Below, one piece after another: positions 32,676 to 64,000 of a stretch of 64,000 bases of DNA. The notes below the pieces were generated by a model, which searched no databases, was not told the DNA's origin, and was given only the letters and a program-made list of their open reading frames with translations. The stretch's first letter is position 1. Every line of letters starts with the position of its first letter. Location: the NCBI RefSeq assembly GCF_964204865.1, contig NC_135252.1, positions 2,170,001-2,234,000 of the forward strand, in the 5' to 3' direction. This DNA comes from Styela clava. Its lineage: Eukaryota. The position numbers were made by a program, and so were the translations under genes.

Positions 32676-35600
32676 TAGGCGGCGAGCCAAGGCCATTTAT
32701 CTTTCAGTTTCGTAGCGCACATAAGGTAACTACCTGAAAATGATTTTAAAATGTTCCTTAGAAATTTAGTAACAAATATTGCCTTGTTCCCACTTCCAAA
32801 AGTTGCACGTTTTACAGAAAAAACTCTTTTACTACAATAAATATGTGTTACCATCTGTCCTATTTTCTCTGCTTTTCCGTTATCATGGGCCAATGAACGC
32901 AGACTTCTGCATGGCGTAACAATCAAATTAGTCAGCTGTAGGTGGATCCCCCGTGTTCGGGTAAATATCAGATGTACTACTGCTCGCTTTTGCGTTGAGT
33001 TGGGTACAATGTTCCCTCTAATTTTTTGTAATATGTGTGCGCAGAAATTTTGGTGTGTGCGCACTTTTTTGGAAATTACTAATATTTGTACAAAAACCGA
33101 TAAAGAAATTTTGGCGTTCTAACCGGGTAATGGGTGGGCCAACAACAAACTTTCTCAACCTGCCAATCGAGAACATTGTTACATTACATCGAAATACGTC
33201 TGTGCGCAGTAAATCTATGTGTGTGCGCAGCCTCTGAAAGCTGTGTGCGCGCGCACACGCGCACACCTTAGAGGGAACACTGGTTGGGTAGCCTTTCCAT
33301 AGTTTTTTTTTCAGTTATTATTAGTTCAGTTATTCTAAGTAGGTGTTGAAAAGTATAAGTAAGATATTAAACACTTGTATATCCTTACCATAAATAGCAA
33401 TTTTAGTTGAGCACTAGCTCATAAGACGTTGTTAAATAGGTACGGTGCGGTAACTCCAAGGAAGGCTAGACCTAGAATAATATGTCACAAACAACGATAT
33501 TTTTTGGCTAGCATGAAATGTTTATGATTAATTTAATGACTCTGTTTCTGTAATGCACGGTTGTGTGAAAGAGAAGAAAATAATCAATTTTACTAATGTC
33601 GGTTGGTCTAAATCTAAATTCATAGAGTCGACAAGAACCTGGGAAGCAATGATAAGTTATGCCGGAGTGGAAAGAAAAATAGCATTGGAAACGATTGAGA
33701 GGTGAGAAATCAAGTTGTAGACAGACAGTTGATGTTTTAAAATATAGTCTATAGTCCATACTCATACTGTCATAGGGCATTTCAGACTGTGATATATATA
33801 TCAAAATTTAGTGTAGATATAGTCTAGTAATGGTATGGAAACACTGCTGGACTGTAGTACATGCAATGAGCATATATACTCTCATTGAGTACATCGGATA
33901 AAATGCATTATGTATTCAATGTATTAGTTAGTATTTAGTGGTATTTTTACTCTCATGCTGTTCAAAATATGATTTTCATCCTCATTTTAGATACTGTACT
34001 ACAAAAGAAAACGGCAATGTTCCACCAATCCGACCTAACGCAGGCTCTAATCCCTGCTGCTATCAGTCCTATAAAATGGATTAAACAAGAACTCTTGAAG
34101 CGTGAAGGTATATGAGAATCATAATAGTTGCAAACAGCTTAGAGGGGTTTCCATATTAAAATACTTTAGCACTTTCCTGCAATTGGAACTGCCCATCATA
34201 CTCATGTTGGAGACTTCATTGAGGTTTTCAATTCATTTTTTGTCTCAACTATGAAGATCTTTTGAGGTTAACGAGGCATTAATAAATAAAGCTGAGGAAT
34301 TTGTTTGTTCACTGTATGAAGAGGATATGAAGAATGTAAATGATACCAGGGCACGTCTATTTAACACTGGCAAACATAAGGATTATACTCTCCCACCCAA
34401 CAATGATTCACTGAAGAAGCATGTGGCCCTCAAATCAGTTCTTGAGTTGGCAAACTGCAAGTGTAAGAAAAATAGTCAAAATAATTTATGCAAGTGTGGA
34501 AAAATCAACTTAAATTGCACAGATTTTTGTTTTTGTATTGACTGCAAAAATCACAGTACACTTATAGGGGAAAAGTCGATTTTCGAGATGTGGATTTCAA
34601 AAACAATTCAGAAAAAAGTGAATTAGATATTGCAGTTGATTTAATAAGTATCATTTATTTGTTTGTTTTTTCGGACATTTGTTAGTGTCGTAGTCCTGTT
34701 TCTAGAAATAATATTGCCTTTGTTCAAATACATAACCACATAAACCAAAAAAAGACTAAATGTAATATTTCTGTTCACTATGTTATGTACATACTGTACA
34801 TTCATTTAATTTTCTTGACATTTCCAGTAAATTTCTAAGTGAGAAATAACTGATTTATTTGTGTTTTCGTGCTCACGATGTTAATTTGTGACTTCATTGC
34901 TTAAAAATAAATACGTTTGATAGCTTCTATAATATGGATGTAGATTTTTAGGCTGTTTTTGTTGTAAACTGCTTGTGGGTATTACATAAAATTTATTCGA
35001 CCTTTCGAGGTCACTCGCGACTCCTGTCACACAATTAAAGTATTTTTGTTATTGGTTACATGTATGCCATATTTTTCGTAATCTACCTAGTAAAATATGA
35101 TTGACTGAGGAAGTCTGATTTTGGTCAGGCAAAACGTTACAGGAATACATTTGTGTTAGTGTGCTGTAGGGCTCTCGAATTGCATAGTTCTTATGTATGT
35201 GTTGTAAACTTATGGTTATTGAATTTCCGGGAACCTCTTATATTCAATTTCGCTGTAACGCTGTAATGCGTTCAGTATGTTCATTTTCACACAAAACTGA
35301 AGAATTTATTTAGTTACCAGATCTGCGCTACGAAACTCATTTTCTGGGCGTTTTCAAGGCTTCGTCTCACGGCCCATATCCGTGGTAAGGATCTACAAGT
35401 GTTTAATACCTTACTTATACTTTTTAACAACGTCTTAGCATAACTTAACTAATAATAACTAAACAGGGCTATGGAAAGGCTGCCCAACTTAACGCAAGAT
35501 CGAGCAGTAATAACTAAGATTCATCCACTCGCTAACAGGTGATTCGATTCAATTGTTACGTCATGTAGAAGTCATTGTTCATTGCTGGAAATGTAGAGAA

Positions 35601-35799
35601 TATAGGACAGATCGTAGCACATATTTCTTGTAGTAAAAGCGTCTTTTCCGTAAAACGTGCAACTTTTGGAAGTGAGAACAAGGCAATATTTGTTACTAAA
35701 TTTTCAAGGGACATTTTAAAATCATTTTTAGGTAGTTACCTGATGTGCTCTACGAAACTCACATTCTAGGCGTTTTTCAGGGCCTCGGCTCGCGGCCTA
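32676..35799 (+). mobile_element. Academ-superfamily DNA transposon, internally deleted
   Basis: Termini TAG..CTA (TAGGCGGCGAGCCAAGGCC / GGCCTCGGCTCGCGGCCTA) with 3-bp TSD TAT; long imperfect TIRs (~32676-33400 vs ~35390-35799). Internal remnant AEEFVCSLY..VNDTRARLF..LPPNNDSLKKHV..LELANCKCKK..CKCGKINLNCTDFCFCIDC resembles the XPG-adjacent Cys-rich C-terminus of Academ proteins. Confidence 0.75.
33007..33282. mobile_element. hAT MITE nested in the left Academ TIR
   Basis: TIRs CAATGTTCCCTCTAA / TTAGAGGGAACACTG; perfect 8-bp TSD GTTGGGTA. Confidence 0.88.
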
Positions 35800-37056: not shown

Positions 37057-37987
37057 TATTGGAGTATTGATGTGCACGATATGCACATGAGGGTTATTTT
37101 GCTAAAAACACGATGGAATGAAAAGAATAAAATCACTTATCTATAAATCGAATTCGATCGGGAATTTTTTGAATACCGAATATTTAAAACAACCCTCAGT
37201 TATATAAATATATTTTAAAACGTGTGGACATGAAATGCATGAAAGAATATATGTCAAATATAAAAAATATTCCAGTGAACGAACACTAGCAAGAGATGTT
37301 GTAGTCATCATCAACTGTTATTAGGAAACGTTGCTCCATCGCCCCTGCAATGATCTGAAACAAAAAATACTTTATAAAATAATATTTTTGTTCTAAACCT
37401 TACACATTTCGAAGAAAGATTGATATCAGTATTTGAAATCTCTTTTTTATCGAGACTTGTATTACTGATTATAAATAAAACTGTAGTTCTAGAGATCATG
37501 GACATTTTGTGTACTAGATTTTTGATATTTTGTCATAAAGGCCTAAGTAATGAAAAACGCAGTGAATAAGTTTTACCTTGATCCATCTTTGCAGGTTGTA
37601 ATTCAATTTCAAGTATGTCGGAGCTCACCTTCAAATATATATAGTAATGATTTTAAAAACGGGATTGATCTCATTTATACTTAACTCAAGTCGAAGTGAA
37701 TCTGGTACGATATACTGAGCCAGACATATTCCAGTCTATTTTTACCACCAAGTTCCTGTACGCCCTATGCCTATCTAATGATACATAGGAAGATATCTCG
37801 AGAAAAGAAAAAATTAATATGAGTTTATACGCAAGTGTTCTACATCGCCTATAATTCAATAATTTGTCTGTATCGTTAGAAAAATAAGTATATACAGTAT
37901 ATAAATCTGATTGTTGCACTGTCCCTTGTACCAAATACCGTTATTTGTTATATCTGAAAGTTTGATTGTTCTTCGCTAGCCGATTTC

Positions 37988-40900
37988 CTACCTATTCTTC
38001 TTATCGGCTCTTTTCTCTCTTTGACACTGAATTGAATGCTTTGTTTTTCAATGTTAATTATTATTTAATTACCTTTAGAGTCTCCAGTTTAATTTGGGCA
38101 ACTGCCCCAAACATTGCCGCCAATGTAATTTCCTGAGCAACATCTCTCTATAAAATTAAAAATAAAAACATTTCACAGAATCTGAATAAAATAATGCTGA
38201 CTAATATTTGATATATTTTTCCCTTTTAATATTAAAATTGAATCATTTCGATAATTTAGATTATAAAATTTGTACAAACCAATTCTTGTTCGATCTTTAG
38301 ATCTTTCCAAAGATTTTGTTTTTCAAATCTCTCCTCTTCTTCCTGATACAACAAAAAATTCAAACATCAAACTAAATTATATGAATAATAGGGGCTCCCG
38401 AAGTATGCGAACCAAGATGACGGACATCGGAATGTGATATGTGTACTAGGTTAGGGTTAGGCCATAATTTTAGGTATAAATACTACGGGAGGCTCTTGGC
38501 TAGTCTTCGAACTGATAATAGGACTAAAATAAGAAAAATTGGAAATAAATTATGGCCAACCCTAACCTGTTACCCATGTTACGTTCCGATGTCCGCCATC
38601 TTGGTTCGCATACTTCGGGAGCACCGAATAATATTTATAATGCACGATAATGATTACATAGATTAAATTTTGAATGATTTTTGTTACATTCACCGCTTAG
38701 ATGACATACATATAAATTACCTGTTTAATTGAAGAAAAGTACAATATCTGATCTATAAATGATAAGTTCAAAGAAGCGTGCATGGTTACAGCTCTCTCTG
38801 ATAATCATGAATCAAATTGAAAATATTCCAGAATATTACCTGTTTCTGCATCTCAAACTGCTGCTTTGCATGTCTGTTTGATACGCAATCAAAATCGTCG
38901 ATACTCTAAAAGATAGATTTGTGTATAAGATAATTAATGAAATAAATTGATTTCTTCAAAGATTATTTATTTTCACAGATAGTCAATGCATAAATACACA
39001 TACCGAAGATAGCGAAGATATTTCACTCATGGTGCTATCCTGAGAACACAAAAATGAAAATTGGAGTGAATTTATAACAGATGAAATTTCCAAAATCCGT
39101 ATTCGCTAAATAATGTAAAGATGCGCACAACGTGTCGAATTTTTGCACGAATGCACCTGCGGTTTTATAAAATAACTGCTTTTAATTAGCGCTTGAACAC
39201 GATTAAAATAAATATGGTATATTGAATAAGTTTATTTCTAATTATTTATACATTTTTAATTTGTTCTGGTTTATTAAATAATAGGTCAATATGAATTGTG
39301 TGGTCTGAGATCTCAGGATAATCCAGAATATTGTGCCATAGGTTAAATACCCACCTGAATGTTTTATATAACTTGTTTGGAAATTCAATACCAACAATAT
39401 GCACTTACCATAGACAAGGACGATACATAAGTCAAAGAATAATCCTGTTAAAATGAAAAACAATATAAAGATTAGTATTAAAATTATCGATGTAATTTAT
39501 TTAATTGGAAATTTCTGATCTTTTTATCTAAATATTTCTTTGCAGTTTTATAACCTTTTTGTTTTGCAATGTCTCGGGCCATTTGGGCACAGGGGGAAAA
39601 GAAGATTTTACAATAAGGAAAACAATAATGTACATCATAGCTAGAGCAGAGATGCTGTTAAACGATAAATATACTACCTTCGTTCAAAAAAAGCAAATGA
39701 TAAAATTACATATCATGAATACGTCCAATAGTTGGCATATAAACTTAATCTCTGCGTAACAAACAGCTAACTTCAATTAAAATGTTATATTAAAATATTA
39801 TAACAAATCTTAAATATCATATTTCGTCAAACTATTCAGACTCTTTTTCATACCGTTGATATCGAAGAAACTTCCCATTGCATATCTTCATCCTGTTGCG
39901 AAATGATGATTTAAAAATTAATGCACTACAAACCATAATTGCAAATGAAAAATGATTGTCTGTCGGTAAATGTATTTATATTCGTATGTTATAAAGTAAA
40001 TTATATTTTGGATTTATGGTATATTCTGAATAATTATTAAAAAGAAACTTTTTTGTGATATCTGCGATTTAGTCATCAAAGAGATAGAGAGAAATATAAT
40101 TTGTGTCTTTCATTTACTAGATAAAACTAAAAAATCACAAATTTTAACTGTTAATTTTTTTTTTATATCTTTGGCTTCAAACAATAACTCTTTTAAAATA
40201 TAATATAGAATGTTATGAAGGAAACTATTTGATGGACTATTTTCCTTCATCACCAATTAAAATGAAAGGAATCTCAACTGTAATAGACATAAATAAAGAA
40301 AAAATATGGTCATTGGATACAAATAATATCAACACCACTAATTGCTTCATAAACAAAGCAATAATAAACAACAATATAAAGTTATTTACATATGGCAGGG
40401 TAGTAAAATTGTTGTAATAATAATATTAAGAGCCATCATTTTTTTAATCCCATTGGTATTTAAGATCTGATTATTGCAACCGGCACCGACCCAAAGCAAA
40501 CAATGTCTCAATTTCCATATCCTGGTAAAACAAGATTACCTTCTCGTAAAACGATTCCAGCGCTATATTTTCTGATCGATGAGATTGTGACGTTATTTCT
40601 CCAAGATCATCAAAATTCTGGGAATAAATTTGTATAAATATATGTTGTTAAAGATAACGTTAATTCATCCAAGAGAATAAAACGTTACTATTAAATGTCA
40701 ATAAGATTTACATGAATATTACATTTTTTGGTGCTACTGAAGTATGCGCACAAAGATGTCGCACAACCTGAACCCAGTACTGGTACACAACCTGAATTCA
40801 GATTGTGCGCCATCTTGGTGCGCATACTTCAGGAGGTTCCATTTTTTGTTTAAACCATGGTTAACAAAGGAATAAAGTAAAATGTTGAAGCTTAAATGTA

Positions 40901-42587
40901 TATCCGGTTGAATAATAATTGGATATTCAAGTTCGCTAAACAATTCTGCGCTATTTTCTTGCAATGGTCAACGACATCTGCTGCATATTTATTCAGAATA
41001 AATTTTATTGTAACAGAAAATAATCGTTGATGTATAAATGTGATTTTAATGATTTTACTCACGTCGTCCATTTTATTCCTGTTTGACTTCATGCCATTCT
41101 GAGTCTTTGAAAAGCATTTGGTAAATATCTGACAAATTAATAAGTACATTTATTACAAGCAAATGAAAAGTCATATGAATTCCTATTTTTTCTGTGGTTT
41201 ACCTTCATCTTCAAATTCAATCCCGTTAATTTTGTCTTGTTGTTTGTAACTTTTTTAATCTTACATTTTCCGGACTGACGTGTCCGTTTTTCGAAATTCT
41301 AAAAGAATGTAGCAATTGAGAGAAATGCGAAAGAAGAGCTATCACAGTTTATAAGCGATAATGATAATTTTCATGATGACTATAGTTTTCAGCACTTTCA
41401 ATTGATGGAAAATTTACTGATGAATGACTTGGTGTCTTTGGTGTTGTTTTTAAACATTAAACATTTGAATCGACAAGTCATATGTAACAAACAGAGCTGC
41501 TGCGCAGAGCTGGGGCCAAGACTTTTTTGAAATAACGTCAGTTATCCAATCATTACCTGCGCTCTGTACAAAGTGCCACAATGTTCTTGGGAGTTATAAT
41601 CATTGGTATCATCTCAAATATTTAAATTTATCTAAACTGCCAGAATATTTCCAAATATGTGTTGTTCAGTTTTAACTTCCTTACTATTATGCAGAATTTA
41701 AAAAAAAGTTGGTTAGTCAATTTCTTATTTACTCACCATAACATTATTGACTTTTCTCATTTTTCTTCCAAACCAACTTGCAAATGCAACAATGCAATGG
41801 ATTGCATTCAAGAAAGAAGACGATCTTTCCTCACTGTCTCCTCGTTTCTTGAAAAAAGGTCAATTACTTTAAACATTGTTTAAAAAATATAGTCTACCAA
41901 ATTATAATTTTGTTTTAAATAGCTGTACTAAGATTTCGTCGATATGTTTCTGGAAAGGACGGTACATCGGACACTCAAATTTTGTTTACATTGCAACAGA
42001 ATTTGTACATATATTACATATATCACAACTCGGAATGTTCAATGTATCAGGATTAATTGTTTAAAAAGTCATGTAATATATCTTCAGGGTTTCATTATTT
42101 CTGTTAGTATCAATGGCGAGGTCAAGTCAAACACTGAAAATACTTCTGATTCCGAATTTGTATAGTGATCGACCCAAGGCAAAGTCGCTTAGCACGAACC
42201 ATATACGCTGAACAAGAAGAATGACACGAGTAACCACTTGTTCAAATAAGAATCGAAACAGCGAGATGTAGACGCTCCTAAGATGAAGTAAATAATTCAG
42301 CAAAGCTTATTGCACAAAGTTTCGGAGGCTAAATTTGTCAACAAGAAGACCAATCTCGTGCCCATGAAGTTAAAGCGGCCTTCACAGATAATTGATACAC
42401 TTTCTCATTGTATAACCAAATTTTGACAGACAAATTGCACTGTTCATTTGATAAAAAGTAGTTCTTTACATACTTGATTCCAACGTTTACGATTCTTACG
42501 ACTCCGCCGTTTCCGTCCACATGAAATGCGATGGCCTCCATCTTCATCTGGCGGATCAATTACAACTTCCTGGTGATGAATATTCAT
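37988..42587 (-). CDS. Uncharacterised all-phase-0 short-exon gene, copy A. Exons 42587-42474, 41847-41737, 41298-41203, 41128-41063, 40617-40540, 39892-39854, 39444-39409, 39039-39004, 38905-38840, 38747-38721, 38342-38280, 38147-38073, 38026-37988; the 72-nt exon near 41560-41610 has lost its acceptor
   Basis: Every exon is bounded by AG/GT, is a multiple of 3 and is open in phase 0: MNIHHQEVVIDPPDEDGGHRISCGRKRRSRKNRKRWNQ|KRGDSEE...|DEDMQWEVSSIST|DYSLTYVSSLSM|DSTMSEISSLSS|...|CQREKRADKKNR*. Confidence 0.7.
38391..38625. mobile_element. Palindromic MITE present only in duplicate copy A
   Basis: Long TIRs GGGGCTCCCGAAGTATGCGAACCAAGATG / CATCTTGGTTCGCATACTTCGGGAGCACC, flanked by direct repeat GAATAATA; absent at the homologous site (~46400) in copy B. 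A related short element sits at ~40730-40840 and ~51636-51746. Confidence 0.85.
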
Positions 42588-42881
42588 GATAACAGTATCG
42601 TTAACATTTCAATTCAACTGCTCGTTGTAAATGAATTTCTTGGATTTTAATGCAATTTGCAAATATTGTTTGAATTGTGACGTCACAATCAATGACAAAT
42701 TAAAAATTCATTCAATAGGTTTCAAGAATCTCACTGAGAAACTGTGTGAATTTGTTTAATATATGGTTAGTGTTCGTAATGGTGAACGACAAATTTGAGA
42801 GAAAGTCGCCAAGATGACAAACAGAACTTGCTGATATCTTGCTACACATTTTGGTGGTAACAAAAACAGGTATATAGACAG

Positions 42882-44540
42882 CAGTGGCGGCGCGTGGTCA
42901 TTTTGACAACCAAGGCAAGCTACTGCGGGACCAAGTCACCCCCATCTATGGGGACAGGATGAGCGCTGTAAGTTCTCCCATCATTTTATGAGTATAAAAA
43001 CCATTCCAGCGGTAACAACCAATCGGCAAAAGCGACAATTTTTAACGATAAGAAAGTGTCTTTAAAACCGGTCCAAGTCAAGGGATTAATAAATATAGAC
43101 ATAGTTTATTTTGAAACCTCTTTCAAAAGGAAAGGCAATATTTACCCAGATAAATACAATGACATATTAACAGAAACTTCGGGAAAGCAGACAAAACCTA
43201 AAATAAGGTTTAAAACGTTACTATGAAAAACGGAAAGGTAATGCAAAGATAAGGACATGCGTCGCTCACTCATAGATATATATGCTGCTAGACTTCTACT
43301 GCTTGAACATATATGCAACACGCCGCGGTTTCTTGGAAGCAAAATGCTCAATAACGCGCTGATTAAAGTCATGCATCCCAGAAATAACGTCTCTGTGAAT
43401 GGATAAAACAGTCAAGGAATTTAATCTATCTTACTTCATTATGTTTCTGAGATACGTCGTCAAAATGATGTCCAGAACTTTTGCAGACGCCGCAAAGGTA
43501 GTTACTAGAGTGTTATCTATGAGGAACCCATAGAGCGCGCAAGTTGATGTGATGTTTAAAAAAGTTTGATTGGTGTATATACAACGCAATTCATTTTCCA
43601 ATTTACCCACGTTTATCATGGGGTAAAATTTGGAGACAGTAGCCAACAAATGGATGGGAAATTGACGTGCAAATTTTGAAAAATTTTTGGGGTTCATCAA
43701 AGAGAACGCGGCAAGGTTTTCAGTGCGCGGACGATCGCCTATTTGATTCACCAGAATGTCACAGCATTCCTTTGCAGACAAAATCAAACGCTGCGTTGTT
43801 TGCCCGCGGCGTAAGGAAGCACTCCATGTGTCATCATATTTTATTGTTTCCCGGATACGAGATACAGCATCGCAGAAGTCTGAAATACACGACTGCACAG
43901 ACGCTCCATCCATTAGCCTTGACTGCAATGCGCCGTATAATACATCCACGTGATAGAATATTGTGGAGAAAAAAGCGAGAAAAAATGAAAACTAACCATC
44001 TTCTAGCAGACGCTTTAGACTTGCCGTCTTCCTCACAGAGCGTTCGTCCCAAACCGGAGAGCTCAGAATGCCATTGAAACACTCAATGAGCTCAGACCTA
44101 ATTTTGGACACGCCCTGCACCACGCGTGATTGGAAGTTCCAACGTGTTGGTGCACAAGCTGGGAGACGGCGGCTACATATCTGGCGAAGGAGGTCAGAGC
44201 GCTTCGGCGAAACGGAAAAAAATGAAGAAAACCCCGAAACATTTGCAAAAAATATACGGACGAGAGGGGTATCAAGACACATACTTTTAATAACGAGGTT
44301 AAATTGGTGTGCATGAAAATGTAAAAAATGCGCATGAGGAAAATCTTCTTTTATATAAACTTGAACACCATGTTTCGACCCACTCATGACTGCCGCGCCG
44401 GCATAAGTTTGAGCTATCAATTTTGACTTCGCGTTGTAAGGCTGTAACGCTTCTTTCAGTACAGCCGATATCCCACAAGCCGTGCGATCGACGATTGGTA
44501 CAAAGCTGTGAAATCTCTCGGTAGGTTTACCATCGCCCAA
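42882..44540 (-). mobile_element. 5'-truncated hAT (Ac-family, ZMYM1-like) transposase element at the duplication junction
   Basis: TIR-like CAGTGGCGGCGCGTG at 42882. ORFs 43992-44540 (IAQTYAGAAVMSG..HFLHFHAHQFNLVI..SPKR..APTRWN) and 43431-43949 carry Ac-type transposase motifs. Confidence 0.88.
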
Positions 44541-45986
44541 GACGTTGTACCTCTAATTTTTGTTCCAGCGGCAGCTGCGAAAACGGAGTGCGAAGTAGTG
44601 CATCAACCTTATTCATTATGAGGTCTAAGGCTAAGAAATGCGAAGCCGGAAAGAAGTGAGGAGCTCAAAAGGAATGTGGAAAATCGAAAGCAAATGGACT
44701 AAAGGTCTCTAACTGATTCAAATAGCGAAACAAGCGACAAAAACGAAGGCGAGGAAACTATCAACTCTTCAAGCAACCAACGAACGAGAAGGAATGCGTG
44801 AATATGTCAACACGTTGTTGTAAGAAACGTCGGCATTGTGTCGTCATAATTTCGGAGCTAGCCCCGATGATTTAGTAAAAGAAACAGAAAACAAACGAGA
44901 CAAACGCGGCGAGTGGAAGATAAAAGAGAGAATACGATATACAATGAGCAACCGGGGCAAAATCGGCGTCGCCCCGTCGACGTTCGGCGAAGGCTTTGCG
45001 AGCGAAAAATGAACCATGTCGGGAGAATATGGTAGTGTAGACAGTCTGTGCAACCGATATTGAGGTATTTTTCGAATATTTTTTATTATACCGAAAAAAC
45101 AATAAATATATAAATAAATATATTTTAAAACGTGTGGACATGAAATGCATGAAAGAATATATGTCAAATATAAAAAATATTCCAGTGAACAAACACTAGC
45201 AAGAGATGTTGTAGTCATCATCAACTGTTATTAGGAAACGTTGCTCCATCGCCCCTGCAATGATCTGAAACAAAAAATACTTTATAAAATAATATTTTTG
45301 TTCTAAACCTTAAATCTTTCGAAAAAGGTTGATATCAGTATTTAGAATCTTTTTTTTATGGAGACTTGTATTACTGATTATAAATAAAACTGTAGTTCAA
45401 AAGTTTCATGGACATTTTGGTGTACTAGATTTTTGATGTTTCGTCATAAAGGCTTAAGTAATGAAATATTTAATATTCAACAACTCAAAAGCAATAGACG
45501 AATGTGTTTAGAAAAATGAACATTTGTATTTTCGATTCCACAGACTCGAATAGAAAGAAATTCGTTGAAAAACGCAGTGAATAAGTTTTACCTTGTTCCA
45601 TCTTTGCAGGTTGTAATTCAATTTCAAGTTTGTCGAAGCTCACCTTCAAATATAGTAATGATTTTAAAAACGAGATTGATCTCATTTATACTTAACTCAA
45701 GTCGAAGTGAATCTGGTACGATATACTGGGCCAGACATATTCCAGTCTATTTTACCTTCTGCTGGCCCTACGCCTATCTAATGATACATAGGGAGATATC
45801 TCGAGGAAAGAAACAAATTAATATGAGTTTGTACGCAAGTGTCCTAGTTCGCCCATAATTCATTAATTGTCTGTATCGATAGAAAAAAAAGTATATACAG
45901 TATATAAATCTGATTGTTGCACTGTCCCATGTATCGAATACCGTTATTTGTTATATCTGAGAGTTTGTTCTTTGCTATCGGATTTG

Positions 45987-48900
45987 CTACCTATTCTTCT
46001 TATCGGCTCTTTTCTCTCTTTGATACTGGACTAAATGCTTTGTTTTTCAATGTTAATTAATATTTAATTACCTTTAGATTCTCCAATTTAATTTGGGCAA
46101 CTGCCCCACACATTGCCGCCAATGTAATTTCCTGAGCAACATCCCTCTATAATGTAAAAATAAAAACATTTCTAGAGAACTAAATATTTCGCAGAATCTG
46201 AATAAATTAATGTTGATTATTATTTGATATATTTGTCGCTATTAACATTAAAAATAAATCATTCGAAATTTTAAATTATAAAATTTGTACAAACCAGTTC
46301 TTGATCGATCTTTAGATCTTTCCAAAGATTTTGTTTTTCAAATCTCTTCTCTTCTTCCTGATACAACAAATAAATTCAAACATCAAAACTGTATTATTTG
46401 GATAATATTTATAATGCACGATAATGATTACATAGATTGAATTTTGAATGATTTGAATTTTGTTACATTCACCGCTTAGATCATAGGTTCTCAAAGTGCT
46501 CCGTACGGAGCCCCAGGGCTCCGCGAGAGAAACCCAGGGGCTCCGCGAGCTATTCGATTACTCTTCAAAATACTGACTCAAAATTTTGTAACTGTTCAAA
46601 GAAGCAATAACAGCTTTGATAACATCTGACAACAATATAGCCTCGAAATATGGTAAAGGGCCGGAATTAAAAAATGACATTATTTATGAGCAGTAGCGCA
46701 GCCAGGATTCTCAAGAGGGAGGTGGTTCAAAATTGGAATCGGAAATTTCCGCGCAACATTTTTCGCGATTAAAAAAACGGATAACGAGATTTCTGTTGCG
46801 TAAAATATTCAATCCAAGACCGATGGAGCGTTTGACGTGTCTCGTCGGTATAATGTAGTTGTGCTCATCGTTACTCACGTTTGATTCGAGATTACTATTA
46901 GGATTACTAAAATGAAAGAATACTATTCTAAAATAACATAAAATATGTGATAAACTGCCATCTATAAATAAATTGGTGTCGTATTTTTGCGATCTTGGTA
47001 TTTGTCAAACTTGATTTGTTCTTTCGCACTTGAGATTATTTTTAAGCAAGATATCGCTGTTTAAAAAATCACAATGTCTGGGGAAAATACGAACAATTGA
47101 AAATTATTTTATTGCATTCAGCTCCGTCGGTAGTTTCAGAATGAAAAAAGGTACATCGCGGATCGCGCGCACCATTGATTGCGTGCGGCTGCGTCGGTAG
47201 TTTCAGAATGAAAAAAAAGGTAAATCGCGCGCACAATTGACTGTGTTTCGATTTCGCAGCTACTACGATGAAAACCTAACATAACACCAAATTTTGTGAT
47301 TTACAATGTCTATAGAAGCGTTTTCAATCTGAGGTGAGTCTGCTGAAACCAAAGTGTGATCTTCCATTTTAAGTTTCAGTTTAAATATTTTAGAATGCCG
47401 CTTTTCAATCAAGAAATTTGAGTTGTGGATTTACCTTTTCATTGATTATTATTTTTAGCATTTCGTCGCCGATGACTATAATATGGTAACATGTTTTTCA
47501 CATTGAACTCATAATTCCCCACGAGAACAAAAAAGCAATTAACGTCGTCATTGTGTAACAATACATGTATATGCCGAGGGAAATTTTTGATTTAGGGAGA
47601 ATAAACAGCGGCGTAAAGATGTTTAAAACACGCCATGCTGACGGAAAAAATCGGCGATTGTAACAAAATGAAATAGCGCACGTTACTAACGGCCTTTTAA
47701 TTGAGTCTTCCAAAAATGTCAAAAAAGAAAAGATTCAGCATTTAGAATAAATAAAGTACTTTTAACTTGTTCGGGAATAATAATCTGAAAGTAACAATTT
47801 TAAAATTTATTTTGGGGCTCCGCGAATAATATTCAACCTTTCAAGGGCTCCGCAACACCAAAAGTTTGAGAACCCCTGGTATAGAGCATAGGTTCTCAAA
47901 GTGCTCCGTACGGAGCCCCAGGGCTCCGCGAGAGAAACCCAGGGGCTCCGCTAGCTATTGGATTACTTTTCAAAGTACTGACTTGGCTAATTTAAAACTG
48001 TTCGTAGAAGCAATAACAGCTTTGATAAAATTTGACAACAAGATATCCTTGAAATATGGCAAAGTGGCGGAATTAAAAATGACAATATTTATAAGCAGGA
48101 GCGCAGCCAGAATTCTTTAGAGGGAGGAAGTTCAAAATTGGAATCGGAAATTTACGCGCAACATTCTTGGCGATTCAAAAAAAAAAAACGGATAACGAGA
48201 TTTCTGTTGCGTAAAATATTTAATTCATGATCGATGCGAGCATTTAAAGTGTCTTGTCGTAATAATTCAATTGTGCTCATCGTTACTCACGTTTGATCAG
48301 AGATTACTATTAGGATTGCTAAAAGGAAAAAATACTATTCTAAGATAACATAAACTGCGTGATAAACTGCCATCTATAAATAAATTGGAGTTGCATTTTT
48401 GCGATCTTGGGATATGTTAAACTTGATATCGCCGTTTGAAAAATCACAAGGGTTGGCAAAATACGAACGATTGAAATTTATTTTAGTGCATGCGACTCTG
48501 TCGGTAGTTTCAGAATGGAAAAATGGTACCTAGCGCGCATAATTAATTGACTGTGTTTCAATTTCGCAGTTACCACGATGAATAACCGAAGAAAACCTAA
48601 CATAACACCAAATTTTGTGATTTACAATGTCTATAAAAGCGTTTTTATTCTGACGTGAGTCTGCTGAAACAAAACTTATATACAAAACTTATCTTTCATT
48701 TTAAGTTTCAGTTCTAATATTTTAGAATGCCGCTTTTTAATCAAGAAGTTTGAATTGCGGATTTACCTCTTTATTAACTATTATTTTTTGCATTTCGTAG
48801 CCGATGATTATAATATGGGAACATCTTTTTTAAATTGATTTCATAATTTCCCACGAGAACGAAAAAGCAATTATCGTCGTCATTGTGGAACAATACATGT

Positions 48901-51900
48901 ATATGCCGAAGGGAATTTTTGATTTAGGGAGAATAAACATTGGCGTAAAGATGTTTGAGGTTTAAAAACACGCCATGCTGACGAAAACAATCGGAGATTG
49001 TAACAAAATACAATCGCGCACGTTATTAGCGGCCTTAAGTCTTCCAAAAATGTCAATAGGGGAAAAGATTCGACCACTAATTTAAAATTTACAGCTTTAG
49101 TCTCTTACAATTTATCTTTGAAAAAGGTTTAGTATTTAAATTGAGTAAAGTACGTTTAACTTACTCTGGAATATTAATCGGAAAGTAACAATTTTAACAT
49201 TTATTTTGGGGCTCCGTGAATAATAGTCAACATTTTCAAGGGCTCCGCAACACCAAAAGTTTGAGAACCCCTGGCTTAGATGACAAACATATAAATTACC
49301 TGTTTAATTGACGAAAAGGACAAAATTAGTAATCTATAAAAGACAAGTTTAAAAGAAGCGTGCATGGTTACAGCTCTCTCCAATAATCATGAATCAAACT
49401 GAAAATATTCCAGAATCATACCTGCTTCTGCATCTCAAACTGCTGCTTTGCATCTCTGTTTGATACGCAATCAATATCGCCAATACTCTAAAAGATAGTT
49501 TTGTGTATAAGATAATTAATGAAATAAATTGATTTCTTCAAAGAATATTTATTTTCGCAAATAGTCAATGCATAAATATACATACCGAAGATAGTGAAGA
49601 TATTTCACTCATGGTGCTATCCTGAGAAACACAAAATTGAAAACTGGAGTGAATTTATAACAGATGAAATTTACAAAATCCGTATACGCTAAATAATGCA
49701 AAGTATGCGCACAACGCGTTGAATTTTTGCACGAATGCACCTGCGTTTTTTTTATAAAATAACTGCTTCTAATTAGCTATTGAACACGATTAAAATAAAT
49801 ATGTTATATTTAATAGGTTTATTGGTCTAATGGTCTAATACAGGGGTGCACAACACGGGGCACGCGTGCCAAATTTGGCACGCCATACGCTCAAACATGG
49901 CACGCGAACTGTTTTGTAAAAAAAAAAAATTATTCATGATATACATTAAAATATCACGTTTATATCAAAATCAGCAGTTTTTCAGGACATTAAACTGTTT
50001 CAATAAATAGATATTCGTTATTATGTAATATTATTGAAATTTGTTTGTTTTACGGGAGGTAATGTCCAATACCAATGATTGTGCGCGGCACGCGACAAGA
50101 TTTTTTCGAAAAATTTGGCACGTGTCCTCATTTGAGTTGTGCACCCCTGGTCTAATAGGTCTAATTAAATATACATTTTCAATTTGTTCTGGTTTATTAA
50201 ATAATACGTCAATATGAATTGTGTGGTCTGAGATCTCAGGATAATCTAGAATATTGTGCATAAGGTTAAATACCCACCCAACTTGTTTGGAAATTCAATA
50301 CCAACAATATGCACTTACCATAGACAAGGACGATACATAAGTCAACGAATAATCCTGTTAAAATGAAAAACAATATAAAGTTTAGTATTAAAATTATCGA
50401 TGTAATTAATTTAATTGGAAATTTCTGCTCTTTTTATCTACCTATTTTCTACGCAGTTTTATAACCTTTTTGTTTTGCAGTGTCTCGGCCCATTTGGGCA
50501 CAAGGGGAAAAGTAGATTTTACAATAAGGAAAACAAAAATGTACATCATAGAGCAGATATGCTATTAAACGATACATGGACTACCTTCGTTCAAAAAAAA
50601 GCACATGATAAAATTACATATTATGAATACGTCCAATAGTTGGCATATAAACTTAATCTCTGCGTAACAAACAGCTAACTTCAATTAAAATGTTATATGA
50701 AAATATTATAACAAATCTTAAATATTATATTTCGTCAAACTATTCAGACTCTTTTCCATACCGTTGATATCGAAGAAATTTCCCATTGCATATCTTCATC
50801 CTGTTGCGAAATATGAATTAAAAATTAAAGCACTACAAATCATAATTGCAAATGAAAAATGATTGTCTGTCGGTAAATGTATTTATATTCGTATGTTATA
50901 AAGTAAATTATATTTTGAATTTATGGTATATTCTGCTTAATTATTAAAAAGAAACTTTTTCATAATATCTGCGATTTAGTCATCAAAGAGATAGAGAGAA
51001 ATATAATTTGTGTCTTCCATTTACTAGATAAAACTAAAAATCACAAATTTTAACTGTTAATTTTTTTTTTATATCTTTGGCTTCAAACAATAACTCTTTT
51101 AAAATATAATATAGAATGTTATGAAGGAAACTATTTGATGGACTATTTTCCTTCATCACCAATTAAAATGAAAGGAATCTCAACTGTAATAGACATAAAT
51201 AAAGAAAAAATATGGTCATTGGATACAAATAATATCAACACCACTAATTGCTTCATAAACAAAGCAATAATAAACAACAATATAAAGTTATTGACATATG
51301 GCAGAGTAGTAAAATTGTTGTAATGATAATACTAAGAGCCATCATTTTTTTAATCGCATTGGTATTTAAGATCTAATTATTGCAACCGGCACCGACCCAA
51401 AGCAAACAATGTCTCAATTTCCAGATCCTGGTAAAACAAGATTACCTTCTCGTAAAATGAATCCAGCGCTATATTTTCTGATCGATGAGATTGTGACCTT
51501 ATTTCTCCAAGATCATCAAAATTCTGGGAATTAATTTGTATAAATATATGTTGTTAAAGTTAACGTTAGTTCACCCAAGAGAATAAAACGTTACTATTAA
51601 ATGTCAATAAGATTTACATGAATATTACATTTTTTGGTGCTACTGAAGTATGCGCACCAAGATGTCGCACAACTTGAACCCGGTACTGGTACACAACCTG
51701 AATTCAGGTTGTGCGCCATCTTGGTGCGCATACTTCAGGAGGTTCCATTTTTTGTTTAAACCATGGTTAACAAAGGAATAAAGTAAAAATGTTGAAGCTT
51801 AAATGTATATCCGGTTGAATAATAATTGAATATTCTAGTTCGCTAAATAATTTTGCGCTATTTTCTTGCAATGGTCAACGACATCTGCTGCATATTTATT

Positions 51901-53518
51901 CAGAATAAATTTTATTGTAACAGAAAATAATCGTTGATGTATAAATGTGATTTTAATGATTTTACTCACGTCGTCCATTTTATTCCTGTTTGACTTCATG
52001 CCATTCTGAGTCTTTGAAAAGCATTTGGTAAATATCTGACAAATTAATAAGTACATTTATTACAAGCAAATGAAATATGAATTCCTATTTTTTCTGTGGT
52101 TTACCTTCATCTTTGAATTCAATCCCGTTAATTTTGTCTTGTTGTTTGTAACTTTTTTTATCTTACATTTTCCGGACAGACGTGTCCGTTTTTCGAAATT
52201 CTAAAAGAATGTAGCAATTGAGAGAAATGCGAAAGAAGAGCTTTTATCACAGGTAATTAGCGATAATGATAATTTTATGATGACTATAGTTTTCAGCACT
52301 TTCCATTGATGGAAAATTTACTGATGAATGACTTGGTGTCTTTGGTGTTGTTTTTAAACATTAAACATTTGAATCGACAAGTCATTTGTGGCAAACAGCG
52401 CTGCTGCGCAAGGGTTCAAGACTTTTTATGAAATAACGTCATTTATCCAATTATTACCTGCGCTCTGTACGAAGTGTCACAATTTTCTTGTGAGGTATAA
52501 TCATTGGTATCGAAACAATGAAGACAGTCCTAAAATACAACATACAAAAATAAAGAAGACGAGGATATCATTTGGTTTACACATAACAAAATTTATCTAA
52601 AGTGCCAGAATATTTCTAAATATGTCATTTTCAAATTTAACTTCCTAAATAATTTGCAGAAATGAAAGAGTTGGTTAATCCTTTTCTTTTTTACTCACCA
52701 TAACATTATTGATTTTTTTCATTTTTCTTCCAAACCAACTCGCAAATGCAACAATACAATGAATTGCATTTATGAAAGAAGACGATGTTTCCTCATTTTC
52801 TCCTCGTTTCTGGAAAAAAGGTCAATTACTTGAAACATTATTTGATAAGTATAGTCTTCAAAGATTGTGTCGATATGTTTCGGGAGGGGGGTACATCGGA
52901 CACTCAAATTTTGTTTACATTGCAACAGAATTTGTACATATATTACATATATCACAACTCGGAATGTTCAATGTATCATGATAAATTGTTCGAAAAGTGA
53001 TGCAATATATCTTCGGGATTTCATTATTTTTTTTAGTATCAATGATGAAGTCAAGTCAAACACTGAGAATACTTCTGATTCCGAATTTGTATAGTGATCG
53101 ACCCAAGGCAAAGTCGCTTGGCACGAACCATATACGCTGAACAAGAAGAATGACACGAGTAACCACTTGTTCAAATAAGAATCGAAACAGCGAGATGCAG
53201 ACGCTCCTAAGATGAAGTAAATAATTCAGCAAAGCTTATTGCACAAAGTTTCGGAGGCTAAATTTGTCAACAAAAAGAACAATCGCGTGCCCATGAAATT
53301 ATAACGGCCTTCACAGATAATTGATACACTTTTTCATTGTATAACCAACTTTTGAAACAGACAAATTGCACTATTCATTTGATAAAAAGTAGTTTCTCAC
53401 ATACTTGATTCCAACGTTTACGATTCTTACGACTCCGCCGTTTCCGTCCACATGAAATGCGATGGCCTCCATCTTCATCTGGCGGATCAATTACAACTTC
53501 CTGGTGATGAATATTCAT
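45987..53518 (-). CDS. Uncharacterised all-phase-0 short-exon gene, copy B, ~296 aa. Exons 53518-53405, 52809-52699, 52529-52458, 52200-52105, 52035-51970, 51523-51446, 50800-50762, 50354-50319, 49621-49586, 49487-49422, 46357-46295, 46146-46072, 46025-45987
   Basis: Exon lengths 114,111,72,96,66,78,39,36,36,66,63,75,39 nt, all AG/GT-bounded and open in phase 0. ATG in accATGa context; a TGACGTCA palindrome lies ~90 bp upstream. Confidence 0.72.
46482..49273. mobile_element. Head-to-tail dimer of a hAT (Buster-type) non-autonomous element (46482-47878 and 47887-49273)
   Basis: Each unit runs CATAGGTTCTCAAAGTG...AAGTTTGAGAACCCCTG. Outer TSD GCTTAGAT on both sides; 8-bp spacer GTATAGAG between units; empty site ccgcttagatgac at ~38692 in copy A. 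Confidence 0.92.
49841..50149. mobile_element. hAT MITE
   Basis: TIRs CAGGGGTGCACAAC / GTTGTGCACCCCTG; 8-bp TSD GTCTAATA; absent from copy A (~39235). Confidence 0.92.
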
Positions 53519-54033
53519 GGTAACAGTATCGTTAACCTTTCAATCCAACTGCTCGCTGTAAATGAATTTCTTGGATTTTAATGCAATTTACAAATATTGT
53601 TTGAATTGTGACGTCACAATCAATTACAAATGAAAATTCATTCAATAGGTTTCGAGAGTCTCATTGAGAAACTTTGCGAATTTGTGTAATATAATATGGT
53701 TATTGTTCGTAATGGTGAACGACAAATTTGAGAGAAAGTCGCCAAGATGACAAACAGAAACTTGTTGATATATTGCTACATATTGTAATGTAAACAAAAA
53801 TAGGTATATAGACAGATTTTGAAAGTAGCCTAATTCCCGACAGTCAATGTTCCATTTCCCTTTTGTGATGGAAAGTGATGTTTTTACATAAGACTACTTA
53901 TTTTGTATTCCACGCTATGTTGTTGTCGCTGAAAATATAGGCCCGAGTCAAACCTAGGGCTTGGAGTGTTGGTAATTTCAGGGTTATATCTATAATGTTT
54001 TGTGGCAAAATAATGTTTCAAGTCACACTAGAT

Positions 54034-57000
54034 CAGTGGTTCTCGAACTATTTTTACTTGCTACGCACTGAGAAAATAATAAAAAAGTTTGCGGCACACT
54101 AATAAAAAATAAAGTTAGCTTTGAACGAATTTATATTCAATAGTTAATGCGATTGATGTGCTTATTTTGAGAAACAAATAGGATTGAAACGTGGTTCCGT
54201 CGTTGCCAAGCACACCCGCATTTTGTAGTCAATTCCAAGAGGTCGCTGCCTTTTCCGCATATCATTTCAGTCAGAGCAGAAAATACGTGTTGACAGAACC
54301 AAGAAGATGCAATGGCAAGCTTATTTTGATGGCTTTTCAAATTATAAAACAATCACTCAAGCTCATAAACACACTTCATACACAAACTAAGAAAGGAGAA
54401 GAAATCACATAAAAAGTAGAATGCAGTGTCGGAAAAGTGCGACCCCTCTGGTCACACCCAAAGCACGAAGAGCAGTCTGGTTTCCAAAAGCATAACTGCC
54501 GAGAAAACTATCCACAAATGTGCTGAAATCCACCACTTTGCTAGAGGCAAGAGGAGCGACATAACTCCTCATACTCTGAGTGCTTCCGATGGGCCGCGTC
54601 ATCCATAGCGGCTTCGCCGTTGTCGAATGGGCACACCACATATTTTACTACGGGAGTACTACGACTTGATTTCCTCCAGAATCAAATTTGGCGGCAGCAT
54701 CACAGCTGTTCTAGCGGTGTGCTCTCTACAAACTACGTCAACATCGCACCTAGAAAACCTGGTTGGTGGTAGGTGAGCCAAGATATCTTCCTGCACCGAA
54801 TCGTGCCGCTACTTGATGATATTATTGACTGGGCGACAGTGATTCAAAACATGAAGAAGAGTCTCGTTCGCGTAACCACACCTGCTACAAGTCACCCGTG
54901 GTTCCACATAAGCCGTAAACCGTGTACGAACGGATCGCAGCGGCAGAAGATTTAATCGAACTTTTAAAACCCACGAAATCTGAAACTAGGCAAGAGAGAC
55001 AGACGTGGAGAGAAAGTAGTTGAGCAATCGAACTGGGAATGACAGGAAACTGTCTTCCCCTGGTACCGAAGCTCGCCCACCGCCTCAACCAACGGGTGTT
55101 GGACACTTGGGGCAACACCCGTTGACGGTCACATCAGGCGCACATCGTAACTGGTAACCGACGTCCGGCAAACCCTTGACGCCCCGGAGAAAAACGTCCA
55201 TCACCATGTTAAAAATGATTTCCGAGAGAGGGCATCCTTGACAGACTCCACTATCTGATGGAATAGAGGAGGTGTCACCATCGATAGTTCGAATGGTAAA
55301 CACGTTATCCATGTAAACGTCAGCAACCGTTTCCAATTTGTACCAGGTGCGCCAAAATGTTGCAGGACTTCGAGAATGGTTCCATGCCTTACCGACCCGA
55401 AGGCATTACGAATGTCAAGCCACGCCACATGAAGATTACGCTTATGTTTCTTGACATCCGCAATGACCGAATCAAGCATGAAAACATTTTCGAAGACGCC
55501 TTTGGAAGGAACGAAGCCCTTCTGTTCCGAGGAAATCACTTTCCAACTACATGCCCAAGACGGAAGACGACGTGCAATCACGACCGCATAGATTTTTATA
55601 CAGCGTGCGGCAGATTGCGATGGGTCTCCAGTTCCCGATGTCATTCATATAACCTTTATGCCCTTCAGGTCCTTGGGAATAAGGATTATCCCAGAGGAAC
55701 GTCATAAACTTAAACTACGCCGGAAACTCCTGCAGATTTCAAAGAGCTTGGTGAGAATTTCACCCCGTTTGTCAATGCGCTTCCAAACTCCATAGGTGAG
55801 CCATCTGGCCCCGGGGAAGTGCTAGTTTTTAAATCCCGCATGACCGAAAAAACTTTCGCCGCACTGACAGTCACGTCCTCCTCTACCACCACGTTACCGT
55901 GGTGGTGAGCGCTTTGGGACATCCACAAAGGCATCGTCCAGTCACCATCTCCGTGCGGAGCCGAATCAGTGCAATATTTCTCTTCTAGTATCGATGATGA
56001 ATGAAGTAGAGCACCGCAGACCACCAGTGAATCCTCGATGATCGATCTAACCGTGCTTCTTCGGATTTCTTCAAAAAGCCGTCCTCAACTGTGGACCGAA
56101 CCCCAGCCGATAACCACGTTCGTCGTTCAATTAGTTTTATTTGGCCCGTTTCTGGGCTGAACGTGAATAACGGTTTGGGGACCGGCGTCCGGCACTCTGG
56201 AAAACAGAGGCACGGGTAGACCAAAGTTCAAACTGTCCCTCAAGATGGCGAACGCCTCGTCTGGCGAGGACATCGAGACACATTCATTCACCAAGTGAAA
56301 AAGTTTTTGACGCAGCTCCTCCAGGTTTAGAACACTCAAAGGAACCGCACCTTCCTGGGGAGATGAACTCTGGCGATCATCCGGCGCAGAAATTAAGCTC
56401 TGATGTATCATGGTTAGCGTGGGGGTAGGAGTGGCTGCATTAATAATTTTTGCAACCACAGGAGGATCCGGAATATGGGTAACTACGGGCTCAGGCTCAA
56501 CCACGAGAATAGGCGAGGTCGAATCCGAAACCGCAAATACGACAATATCAGATCAACAGGACCGGAATTTTTGGGCTTACTCACGATCTCAATTACTATT
56601 TCAGGGCTTTGGGGCGACGGGGTAACTACAGTGAATAAGTGTGGATCAGGTTTGGGTTGGGGTGAAGCTTCGTCCCATGCCGTACGCAGCCACGACAACA
56701 ACGACTACATTTCGGAGTCCCTATTGACAAAACAGCACACGGCCTGGAGGCGCCTTTAGGCGGAAATTCCTTTATTAGAGGTCGAATTTGACTGAGGGGG
56801 GATTCTTTACGGCCATAGGAAGGGGAAGAGGTTTTACTTTACGGGGAGGAGGTTCTGGTGTCGCCAGCTTCAATTATATGGTGACAATCACCCTTGCTAC
56901 ATCGAAAAGGCAATTCAATATTATTATCAGTTATCTGCTAATAACTGCGCAGCACTTACGTCTCACAAGCATGTCCGTTGCGTGCATGCCTATGTGTTAT

Positions 57001-62245: not shown

Positions 62246-63191
62246 GGCGTATTTTCTGCAGTGTAAGCACGATTACAAAACTTACATTTTAAATATAACT
62301 CCATCTTTTATAGTAAAATTGCTGTACAGGAGTAATGGGAAATGGATTTTTTGGCGATTCAGAGGTCAAGGTTTCCGGGCATTTCCCCAACTATATATAG
62401 AAATATACAGAATGAGGAAGCACGCCTGAGTAACTTACTAAACGTGACATGGTAGCATTTCGAAACCTCTTGTCGAACGACAGCAAGTGGATTACATGAG
62501 TGCATTTTAAGCAAACCGTTCGAATAAGTATCCATGTTATTATTGGCCAGTGTTAAGTTGGGAAACAAATGCAATGAATACACGGGTCTTTATTTTCATA
62601 TATTCAATGAAATAGATATAAATGTAGAGATTGCAGACAAATGACGTTCTCCCTTATTCCGAAAAATAAGATCATCTCACAAAACATCAATATAATTTCA
62701 CACATTTCTAGACGATGTTTTTTATTTATGCAGTCGCGGAAATCACAGTACAGGAGTTGCGGGAATACTTCTACGGTCTATATTAGCTAATAAGGCTTGA
62801 AAGAAACATATTAAAATTTCCAAGCGGAAAGTACTAGAATACCATCGTCATCGAGTTGAATCACGATCCTGTACAGTTATATGAGTGCAATCGGTCTTTA
62901 ACTAATTGATATTGGAGGCTTGAATACTCATGCTATTAATGGGTCAGACAAATTCCAGACAGATTGGAATGATTCATAATTAGTTTTTATGTGTGACGCC
63001 AACAAAACCGTGGGGAAATTTCAGACCACAACTGAATGTATATTACTAAATGGTATTTTTGATGCTTCTATTTTTGCCACATTTGCGTTCCATGGAAATC
63101 TAATAAAATTATATAAAAGATGCAATGTTCGACTGATTCTTGGAAACATAGACTAATTATACAACGGAACATTTAGGATAAAATTTGCAAC
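62246..63191. promoter_or_regulatory. Divergent promoter region shared by IL-17 genes 4 and 5, with TATA boxes and kappaB-like sites
   Basis: Minus-strand CTATAAAAG at ~62305-62313; GGGCATTTCC at 62377-62386; GGGGAAATTTC at 63012-63022; plus-strand TATATAAAAG at ~63110. Confidence 0.55.
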
Positions 63192-63954: not shown

Positions 63955-64000
63955 GTTGGTTTAGTTTTCCTGACCCTTCTTTGTATTAAAATATTCTGTT

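Follow-up and report, generated by a model that had tools for sequence, protein, structure and literature searches.

The question raised by the locus studied here is whether a gene assembled almost wholly from short exons joined by phase-0 introns is built in this way for combinatorial exon skipping or carries the trace of the manner in which it has grown. The window, i.e. the whole stretch of 64,000 nucleotides that was analysed (Styela clava, assembly GCF_964204865.1, NC_135252.1, positions 2,170,001 to 2,234,000 of the forward strand), contains such a gene on the minus strand in two tandem copies, the duplicated units extending from about 37201 to 42881 and from about 45111 to 53815. Analysis of both copies and of their relatives suggests, with a probability of roughly 0.55, a spliced, duplicated gene encoding a mostly disordered intracellular scaffold which is predicted to be held at a membrane by its head and to dock through one C-terminal helix. 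The phase-0 build would be the trace of modular growth by frame-safe duplication, loss and import of exons, and not a device for combinatorial skipping.

Structure of the two gene copies

The original prediction, made from the nucleotide letters, had proposed a duplicated gene of fourteen short exons, all joined by phase-0 introns, between 37988 and 53518. That a duplicated spliced gene is present was borne out, since database proteins map exactly to the two minus-strand copies and the contig joints are canonical. The exons are short, open and flanked by AG/GT in both copies, and a genome-wide DNA search with the window gene returned 2 places only, both being the window copies. The database entries are uncharacterized Styela clava proteins, LOC144421075 (P0004, 315 amino acids, and P0003, 283 amino acids) and LOC120343024 (P0002, 291 amino acids), all three being exact letter matches to the window. 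Lengths below are in nucleotides (nt).

Copy 2
45221-53518, minus: copy 2 (upstream copy), LOC144421075; coding span, 14 exons, 315 amino acids; database model and junctions
53405-53518, minus: exon 1 (114 nt), with the start codon and a polybasic stretch; module of the 17-locus family
52699-52809, minus: exon 2 (111 nt), amphipathic helix with a Cys, then basic residues; the most strongly conserved module of the family
52458-52529, minus: exon 3 (72 nt), copy 2 only; joints 52528>52698 and 52200>52458
52105-52200, minus: exon 4 (96 nt), basic; omitted in database isoform X2
51970-52035, minus: exon 5 (66 nt); contig joints and model
51446-51523, minus: exon 6 (78 nt); contig joints and model
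50762-50800, minus: exon 7 (39 nt), Ser-rich, similar to exons 8-9; contig joints and model
50319-50354, minus: exon 8 (36 nt); contig joints and model
49586-49621, minus: exon 9 (36 nt), 20/36 nt the same as exon 8; contig joints and model
49422-49487, minus: exon 10 (66 nt); contig joints and model
46295-46357, minus: exon 11 (63 nt), charged, predicted helix; joints, model and AlphaFold
46072-46146, minus: exon 12 (75 nt), hydrophobic helix, candidate AKAP-spaced docking helix; 45/75 nt the same as type A exon 13
45592-45643, minus: exon 13 (52 nt), followed by a phase-1 intron; absent from the original prediction; database model
45221-45264, minus: exon 14, last coding exon (41 nt) and stop; database model

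Copy 1
37311-42587, minus: copy 1 (downstream copy), LOC120343024; coding span, 13 exons, 291 amino acids; model and junctions
42474-42587, minus: exon 1 (114 nt), identical in sequence to that of copy 2
41737-41847, minus: exon 2 (111 nt), joined directly to exon 4; joint 41298>41737
41557-41610, minus: exon 3 remnant, 3' part retained, acceptor end replaced
41203-41298, minus: exon 4 (96 nt); joints and model
41063-41128, minus: exon 5 (66 nt); joints and model
40540-40617, minus: exon 6 (78 nt); joints and model
39854-39892, minus: exon 7 (39 nt); joints and model
39409-39444, minus: exon 8 (36 nt); joints and model
39004-39039, minus: exon 9 (36 nt); joints and model
38840-38905, minus: exon 10 (66 nt); joints and model
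38721-38747, minus: 27-nt exon of the original prediction, unused in the contigs and models examined; bridged by joint 38341>38839
38280-38342, minus: exon 11 (63 nt); joints and model
38073-38147, minus: exon 12 (75 nt), candidate docking helix; joint 38147>38280 and model
37988-38026, minus: last exon of the original prediction, within intron 12 of the models; only an unspliced contig, 37615-38140, depth 7.25
37577-37628, minus: exon 13 (52 nt), followed by a phase-1 intron; database model
37311-37354, minus: last coding exon and stop; model, with an X9 contig piece ending at 37354

In copy 2 all introns are phase 0 (12/13) except the last, intron 13, which is phase 1, and 12 of the 14 exons are multiples of 3 with phase-0 ends, including a run of 11 successive internal 0,0 exons. 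Exon lengths range from 36 to 114 nt, three of the 14 exceeding 81 nt and none being below 36 nt. Copy 1 has 13 exons and lacks exon 3. The probability of at least 12 of 13 introns being phase 0 is 0.0017 at p=0.5, a value obtained for a gene chosen for this very trait and in which exon duplications are non-independent draws; the phase-0 share of human introns is 46% as given in PMC3632108.

Twelve of the fourteen proposed exon positions agreed with the models, while the 27-nt exon is bridged and the proposed last exon lies inside an intron. Similarly, the phase-0 pattern holds for introns 1-12 but not for intron 13, and two further exons follow downstream: since the models continue to 37628-37577 and 37354-37311, the gene passes beyond position 37988 and is not 'entirely' phase 0. 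The proposed product of 296 amino acids corresponds arithmetically to copy 2 with the proposed last exon and without the 27-nt exon; the models give 315 and 291 amino acids.

Splicing and expression of the copies

Contigs from X1, X6, X8 and X9, four of the seven runs guessed to be RNA among the 11 listed, provided the evidence on splicing and expression. Among the joints listed, CT..AC joints were found at at least 10 of the 13 copy-2-type junctions (exons 2-3 to exons 11-12) and at the copy 1 junction between exons 2 and 4; junctions of exons 1-2, 12-13 and 13-14 were not among them, contig pieces ending at 42474, 41847 and 37354. Run X1 gave a contig with 0 differences from copy 1 (depth 69.7), in which exon 2 is joined to exon 4, and another carrying ten copy-2 differences (depth 62.1), in which exons 2-3-4 are joined. 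Since both contig types occur in X1, both copies are transcribed and the 'skip' of exon 3 is built into the DNA of copy 1. The absence of exon 3 from copy 1 is thus a loss of the acceptor and not free exon skipping.

Runs X6 and X9 gave few copy-2-type joints at low depth, and X8 gave no gene joints among the rows listed, which says nothing on absence. Expression was clear in one of the four runs and faint in two, contig depth being a poor measure. The joint 38341>38839, which bridges the 27-nt exon, had a depth of 82.8 in X1 and 9.7 in X9; this exon is in none of the three mapped models, and copy 2 has no acceptor AG at that place. At the 3' end, the database models are accompanied by the contig piece that stops at 37354 and by an unspliced contig of low depth across intron 12.

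Divergence between the copies

Comparison of copy 1 with copy 2 gave a nonsynonymous divergence (dN) of 0.031 and a synonymous divergence (dS) of 0.084, with dN/dS of 0.37 (Fisher p 0.008). No coding insertion or deletion was found in 873 nt, against 17 expected at the raw intron rate and about 8 when the repeat-filled intron was omitted. The sequences indicate that both copies are under purifying selection. Intron divergence between the copies was 6.4% as compared with a published heterozygosity of 1.72% for Styela clava (PMC7540406), and the copies are consequently paralogues and not alleles; allelic haplotypes assembled in tandem were rejected on this divergence together with co-expression in the contigs examined. 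P0001, a model from another assembly, resembles copy 2 at most of the 5' sites, whereas from residue 219 onward 10 of the 11 sites that differ match copy 1 and the eleventh is peculiar to P0001. Such a mosaic could stem from unequal crossing-over, from conversion or from a model that merges the two copies.

A family of 17 loci sharing one head

The search for further copies that had been recommended returned only the window pair at the DNA level, while matches to exons 1 and 2 extended the family to 17 loci. Exon 1 and exon 2 each gave 17 genome matches, distributed over contigs C3, C6, C8, C13, C14 and C17 (six chromosomes), and all but one of the 17 loci matched by exon 2 are matched by exon 1 as well. 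Seventeen is a lower bound. An exon-12 query of the genome matched the 2 window copies only and missed the known type A loci described below, hence short queries are insensitive. A profile of exon 2 retrieved 15 proteins among 1551 candidates, all from Styela clava, and the exon 2 alignment has 8 invariant columns, including a Cys and a Trp-Phe-Gly. An HMMER scan of 1.84 billion representatives returned 4 proteins, all Styela clava members of the 17-locus family, without any non-Styela match in these libraries, from which most ascidian genomes may be missing. A literature search by topic and by six database identifiers found no paper on the family in the library searched. What is known already are the automatic RefSeq models, which indicate neither the family nor a function nor the relation of the window gene to the other 15 loci.

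Judged by their sequences, the loci have one head in common and three kinds of body: the window type (2 loci), type A (4) and type B (11). Type A has the body of the window type in a longer form that includes four helix exons, two of them internal duplicates, whereas in type B exons copied from SAPCD2 stand in place of this body.

C17:5.51-5.59 Mb (L041-L050), C8:14.39 Mb, C6:0.79, 2.45 and 4.60 Mb, C3:0.39 Mb: type B, 11 chimeric genes
C6:10.95 Mb, C6:11.00 Mb, C13:3.69 Mb (L031-L038): type A, four one-exon helices with AKAP-like spacing
C14:21.79 Mb (L039): type A copy, no exon-1 match and no helix-exon matches

Six type B genes stand in tandem on C17 with a spacing of about 13 kb, and the copy at C14:21.79 Mb is probably a deleted or broken type A gene. 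The tree of the head module, constructed from 14 protein rows, showed three well-separated groups with 39-55% identity; it is unrooted and gives no order of events. The window head formed a branch of its own (97/96) and is equally far from A and B, so that the window branch is old. Alignments revealed that the window gene and type A share exons 1, 2, 3, 5, 11 and 12 (z 3.7-13), and that types A and B have only residues 1-72 in common.

Two side observations concern exons of these types. Type A exon 6 carries a variable internal tandem repeat (126 vs 210 nt). At C6:0.789-0.792 Mb (L023), two exon-1-like segments lie 2.6 kb apart before a single exon 2, and exon 1 likewise varies between two A and B database models, which suggests alternative or duplicated first exons.

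Probable growth by exon duplication, loss and import

Four of the 11 paralogue proteins (two A and two B) were mapped in full. Phase-0 introns numbered 16/16 and 16/18 in type A, and 9/12 and 17/20 in type B, where every non-zero intron lies inside the SAPCD2 block. In type A each of the four helices is on its own exon, and exons 9 and 11 are identical at 39/60 nt. The window gene retains only the helix exon of the A exon-13 type (45/75 nt identical), and its exons 7-9 are alike at 20/36 nt. These similarities are the best of 136 pairs in A and of 78 pairs in the window gene, and the window figure is modest. Homology of the 52-nt phase-1 exon of the window gene with the 52-nt phase-1 exon of type A was considered and rejected (20/52 nt, z 0.8).

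SAPCD2 is a cortical polarity protein. The Pfam domain Suppressor_APC scored above the cut-off in 4 of 5 type B proteins, and 11 matches to it were found in the genome, 10 at B loci and 1 at C1:19.20 Mb. The SAPC2_N domain has a single genome match, also at C1:19.20 Mb, and none in the window or in the family proteins; since it occurs solely there, that locus is the true SAPCD2. Exons 4-8 of type B are collinear with segments of SAPCD2 (E 1e-5 to 1e-18 for two of them and 0.1-0.2 for three), and a 196-nt exon is common to both with 67-72% DNA identity. The phases of the donor block, as predicted by splice motifs, are 0 in, then 2, 2, 0, 1, and 0 out, and are the same in B. Type B thus has the middle exons and the Suppressor_APC helix of SAPCD2, but differs from it by the absence of SAPC2_N and by a new head and tail; the window gene has neither domain.

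These sequences point to a mechanism in which the SAPCD2 block would have been captured as genomic DNA, as a 0-to-0 cassette, at a phase-0 intron of an all-phase-0 host and then amplified. On the same plan, the window branch would have lost three of the four helix exons, and copy 1 its exon 3. For human genes, PMC3632108 describes disordered proteins encoded by runs of symmetric exons that have grown by internal duplication, and the family studied here resembles those cases in the run of exons of the same phase, in low predicted order and in the similarity of neighbouring exons (9 and 11 in A, 7-9 in the window gene). In contrast to the human proteins of that source, the present family is species-restricted and also took in a foreign multi-exon block, which it then multiplied.

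Predicted features of the protein

As originally predicted, neither a signal peptide nor a recognised domain was detected: Pfam gave 0 families above the cut-off for the 3 window proteins, and a signal peptide looked for in the window protein was not found, its head being acidic and then polybasic. A sub-threshold match of P0003 to a phage tail family was discarded, as were 2 weak matches to proteasome subunits (E 0.72) in a search of solved structures; the Protein Atlas gave no usable match for P0004 or P0012. A type II membrane protein was ruled out since no run of transmembrane strength was present, the best 19-residue hydrophobic mean being 1.2, near the C-terminus.

The AlphaFold model of the window protein (315 amino acids) had a predicted local distance difference test score (pLDDT) of 38, with helices at 45-82 and 225-285 and 293 of 315 residues below 50 on a shallow alignment; a second model had a pLDDT of 34. 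The first 40 residues carry a net charge of +7 with an Arg/Lys run, and the N-terminal helix is amphipathic (moment 0.43) with a conserved Cys. A polybasic region combined with a lipid anchor is a known means of keeping a disordered scaffold at a membrane (PMC7752083), and in tunicates the Botryllus histocompatibility factor (BHF) employs its N-terminal cysteines to this end (PMC12065747). Membrane tethering of the window protein by its polybasic residues and an amphipathic, possibly palmitoylated helix has close to an even chance of being right and is assigned by type of motif only.

The helix encoded by exon 12 is a candidate docking site. AKAP helices, 14-18 residues long, carry hydrophobic residues at positions 2, 5, 6, 9, 10, 13, 14 and 17 as published in PMC12083921, and 7 of these 8 positions are filled in the window helix and 8/8 in its type A homologue; type A has three further isolated helices with AKAP-like spacing. 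A relaxed AKAP pattern that had been set after viewing the sequences was not counted as evidence. Binding of the exon-12 helix to the regulatory subunit of protein kinase A (PKA) is the leading guess for this helix but a minority one, doubtful for the window gene and somewhat less so for type A, and it again concerns the type of motif. The resemblance to AKAP79, AKAP12, smAKAP, AKAP220 and SKIP, as these are presented in PMC12083921 and PMC7752083, lies in the probably disordered chain, the polybasic head and isolated helices with hydrophobic spacing, several of them in type A. Unlike those proteins, the window protein has no sequence homology to any of them, and its helix is weakly amphipathic and without the FA/YA type-I mark. 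The Styela clava genome encodes a PKA RII subunit (P0017, the candidate partner) and has three other docking-domain loci. Two RIIa-domain loci besides the PKA subunits, at C4:22.05 Mb (L051) and C1:15.27 Mb (L052), were observed; we take them to be SP17-like, and their products are possible alternative partners of the helices.

Several points weigh against a membrane-held scaffold grown by exon shuffling. Regarding the protein, the low pLDDT may be due to an alignment of only 7 sequences no less than to disorder, and the polybasic stretch could just as well be a nuclear localisation signal. Specificity of the AKAP spacing is poor, given that the globular control P0017 gives 3 matches and that the N-terminal helix also matches; 3-4 hydrophobic residues lie on the opposite face of the window helix, and a stricter AKAP consensus gives 0 matches in the window proteins and 2 in A proteins (p 0.02-0.03). 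Regarding the gene, window exons 4 and 6-10 have no significant counterpart in type A, so that homology of the bodies rests on exons 3, 5, 11 and 12; the exon borders of SAPCD2 were predicted from splice motifs and not from RNA, and the SAPCD2 parent seems to have one intron more inside the block than B. Moreover, contigs lose rare splice forms, and one database isoform, X2, is without exon 4.

Alternative explanations

The best surviving alternative, possible though clearly less probable than the scaffold, is a disordered nuclear or nucleolar protein, e.g. of the germ line, whose basic head would be an import signal or nucleic-acid binder and whose C-terminal helix would be a site for dimerisation or a chromatin partner. 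The charge of the head and the basic-then-acidic layout of the chain agree with it, and the expression pattern over the four runs may mean tissue restriction, within the limits of contig depth. However, the best conserved part of the family is the amphipathic helix with Cys, Trp and Phe and not the basic run, and the same head is grafted onto exons of a cortical polarity protein.

A submembrane adaptor like the Botryllus protein BHF, acting in ascidian self/non-self or immune signalling, is improbable. BHF, as described in PMC12065747, is a charged, disordered tunicate protein with interspersed helices which lies under the plasma membrane and needs its N-terminal cysteines, an anatomy similar to that of the window protein, and a mosaic allele was seen here in another assembly. 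The profile search of the 1.84 billion representatives gave only the four Styela clava proteins and no sequence link to BHF, which may be missing from that library and was not compared directly; no receptor genes were noticed next to either window copy, and the localisation demonstrated for BHF in that source is only predicted here.

The original prediction likened the gene to the micro-exon genes (MEGs), which diversify by exon skipping. In a generator of diversity of this kind, combinatorial skipping of symmetric exons would yield variants for immune or recognition use. As in the MEGs of Schistosoma mansoni, there are 10-20 short exons, mostly multiples of 3, in a dispersed and lineage-restricted multigene family; exons 2-12 could each be skipped in frame, the gene sits among five IL-17 genes, and since the database model P0003 (isoform X2) is without exon 4, some skipping may occur. 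Against this, there was one splice path per copy in the contig joints listed, with no repertoire of skips, the loss of exon 3 is a copy-specific change of the DNA, and IL-17 matches are not found near any of the other 15 members of the family. Schistosome MEGs are reported to be secreted, with exons of 6-81 nt, mostly 15 nt, and variably spliced central exons (bioRxiv 10.1101/2023.06.21.545858), while the window gene has no signal peptide and exons of 36-114 nt. The proposed dN/dS comparison, giving 0.37 and purifying selection, also counts against skipping as the source of diversity, which appears very improbable.

Least probable of all is a decaying type A duplicate with little function of its own, its two copies being a recent neutral duplication: the window gene is shorter than A, without three of the four helix exons and the A tail, with exon 3 lost in copy 1 and repeat insertions nearby, but both copies are expressed and spliced with open frames, the dN/dS given above and no coding indel, and the head, as far from A as from B, marks an old branch.

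Neighbourhood of the pair

The gene had been said to sit inside an immune cytokine cluster. IL-17 genes are indeed present on both sides, five Pfam IL17 matches lying around the pair on both strands (window 15698-22725, and 58022-64000 and beyond; C3:2.186-2.235 Mb) out of 32 in the genome. However, the other 15 loci of the family all lie at least 1.4 Mb from any IL-17 match, and the IL-17 neighbourhood is therefore probably incidental. Further features noted in the window are repeats and open stretches.

42882-45110, no strand: repeat element between the copies, at the duplication junction; many variant contigs, transposase-like open reading frame (ORF) pieces without a Pfam match
46482-49273, no strand: two nested copies of a repeat element enlarging one copy 2 intron (3064 nt vs 497 nt)
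38386-38630, 40737-40835 and 51640-51741: small intronic hairpin-type repeats with very high contig depth in all runs examined, considered an abundant family of miniature elements
54885-56552, minus: broken non-LTR retrotransposon pieces upstream of copy 2, with RVT_1 matches in two frames
32706-35759: remnant of a DNA transposon, with transposase-like ORF pieces between 173-nt inverted repeats that lie 2.7 kb apart
11103-14559, plus: several open stretches that resemble helical-protein exons; the three tested had no Pfam match

Implications

Taken alone, the window gene is an ordinary-looking orphan, and the family with its chimeric subfamily is more telling. One genome shows an all-phase-0 gene that duplicates and loses exons and takes up a frame-compatible block, with the donor still intact for comparison, and a textbook claim of exon shuffling thereby becomes directly checkable. 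The family also offers a candidate new membrane-anchor module and possible lineage-specific anchors of PKA, the evolution of which is thinly mapped outside vertebrates. It is conceivable, if rather unlikely, that Styela clava has invented membrane-anchored PKA scaffolds with one exon per anchoring helix, raised to four sites by phase-0 exon duplication in type A and cut back to a single site in the window genes, and that the same anchor, grafted to SAPCD2 exons and multiplied to 11 copies, has become a new regulator of cortical polarity or of the spindle. If true, this would be a natural and datable case of the origin of AKAPs and of a chimeric regulator by exon shuffling in one chordate lineage.

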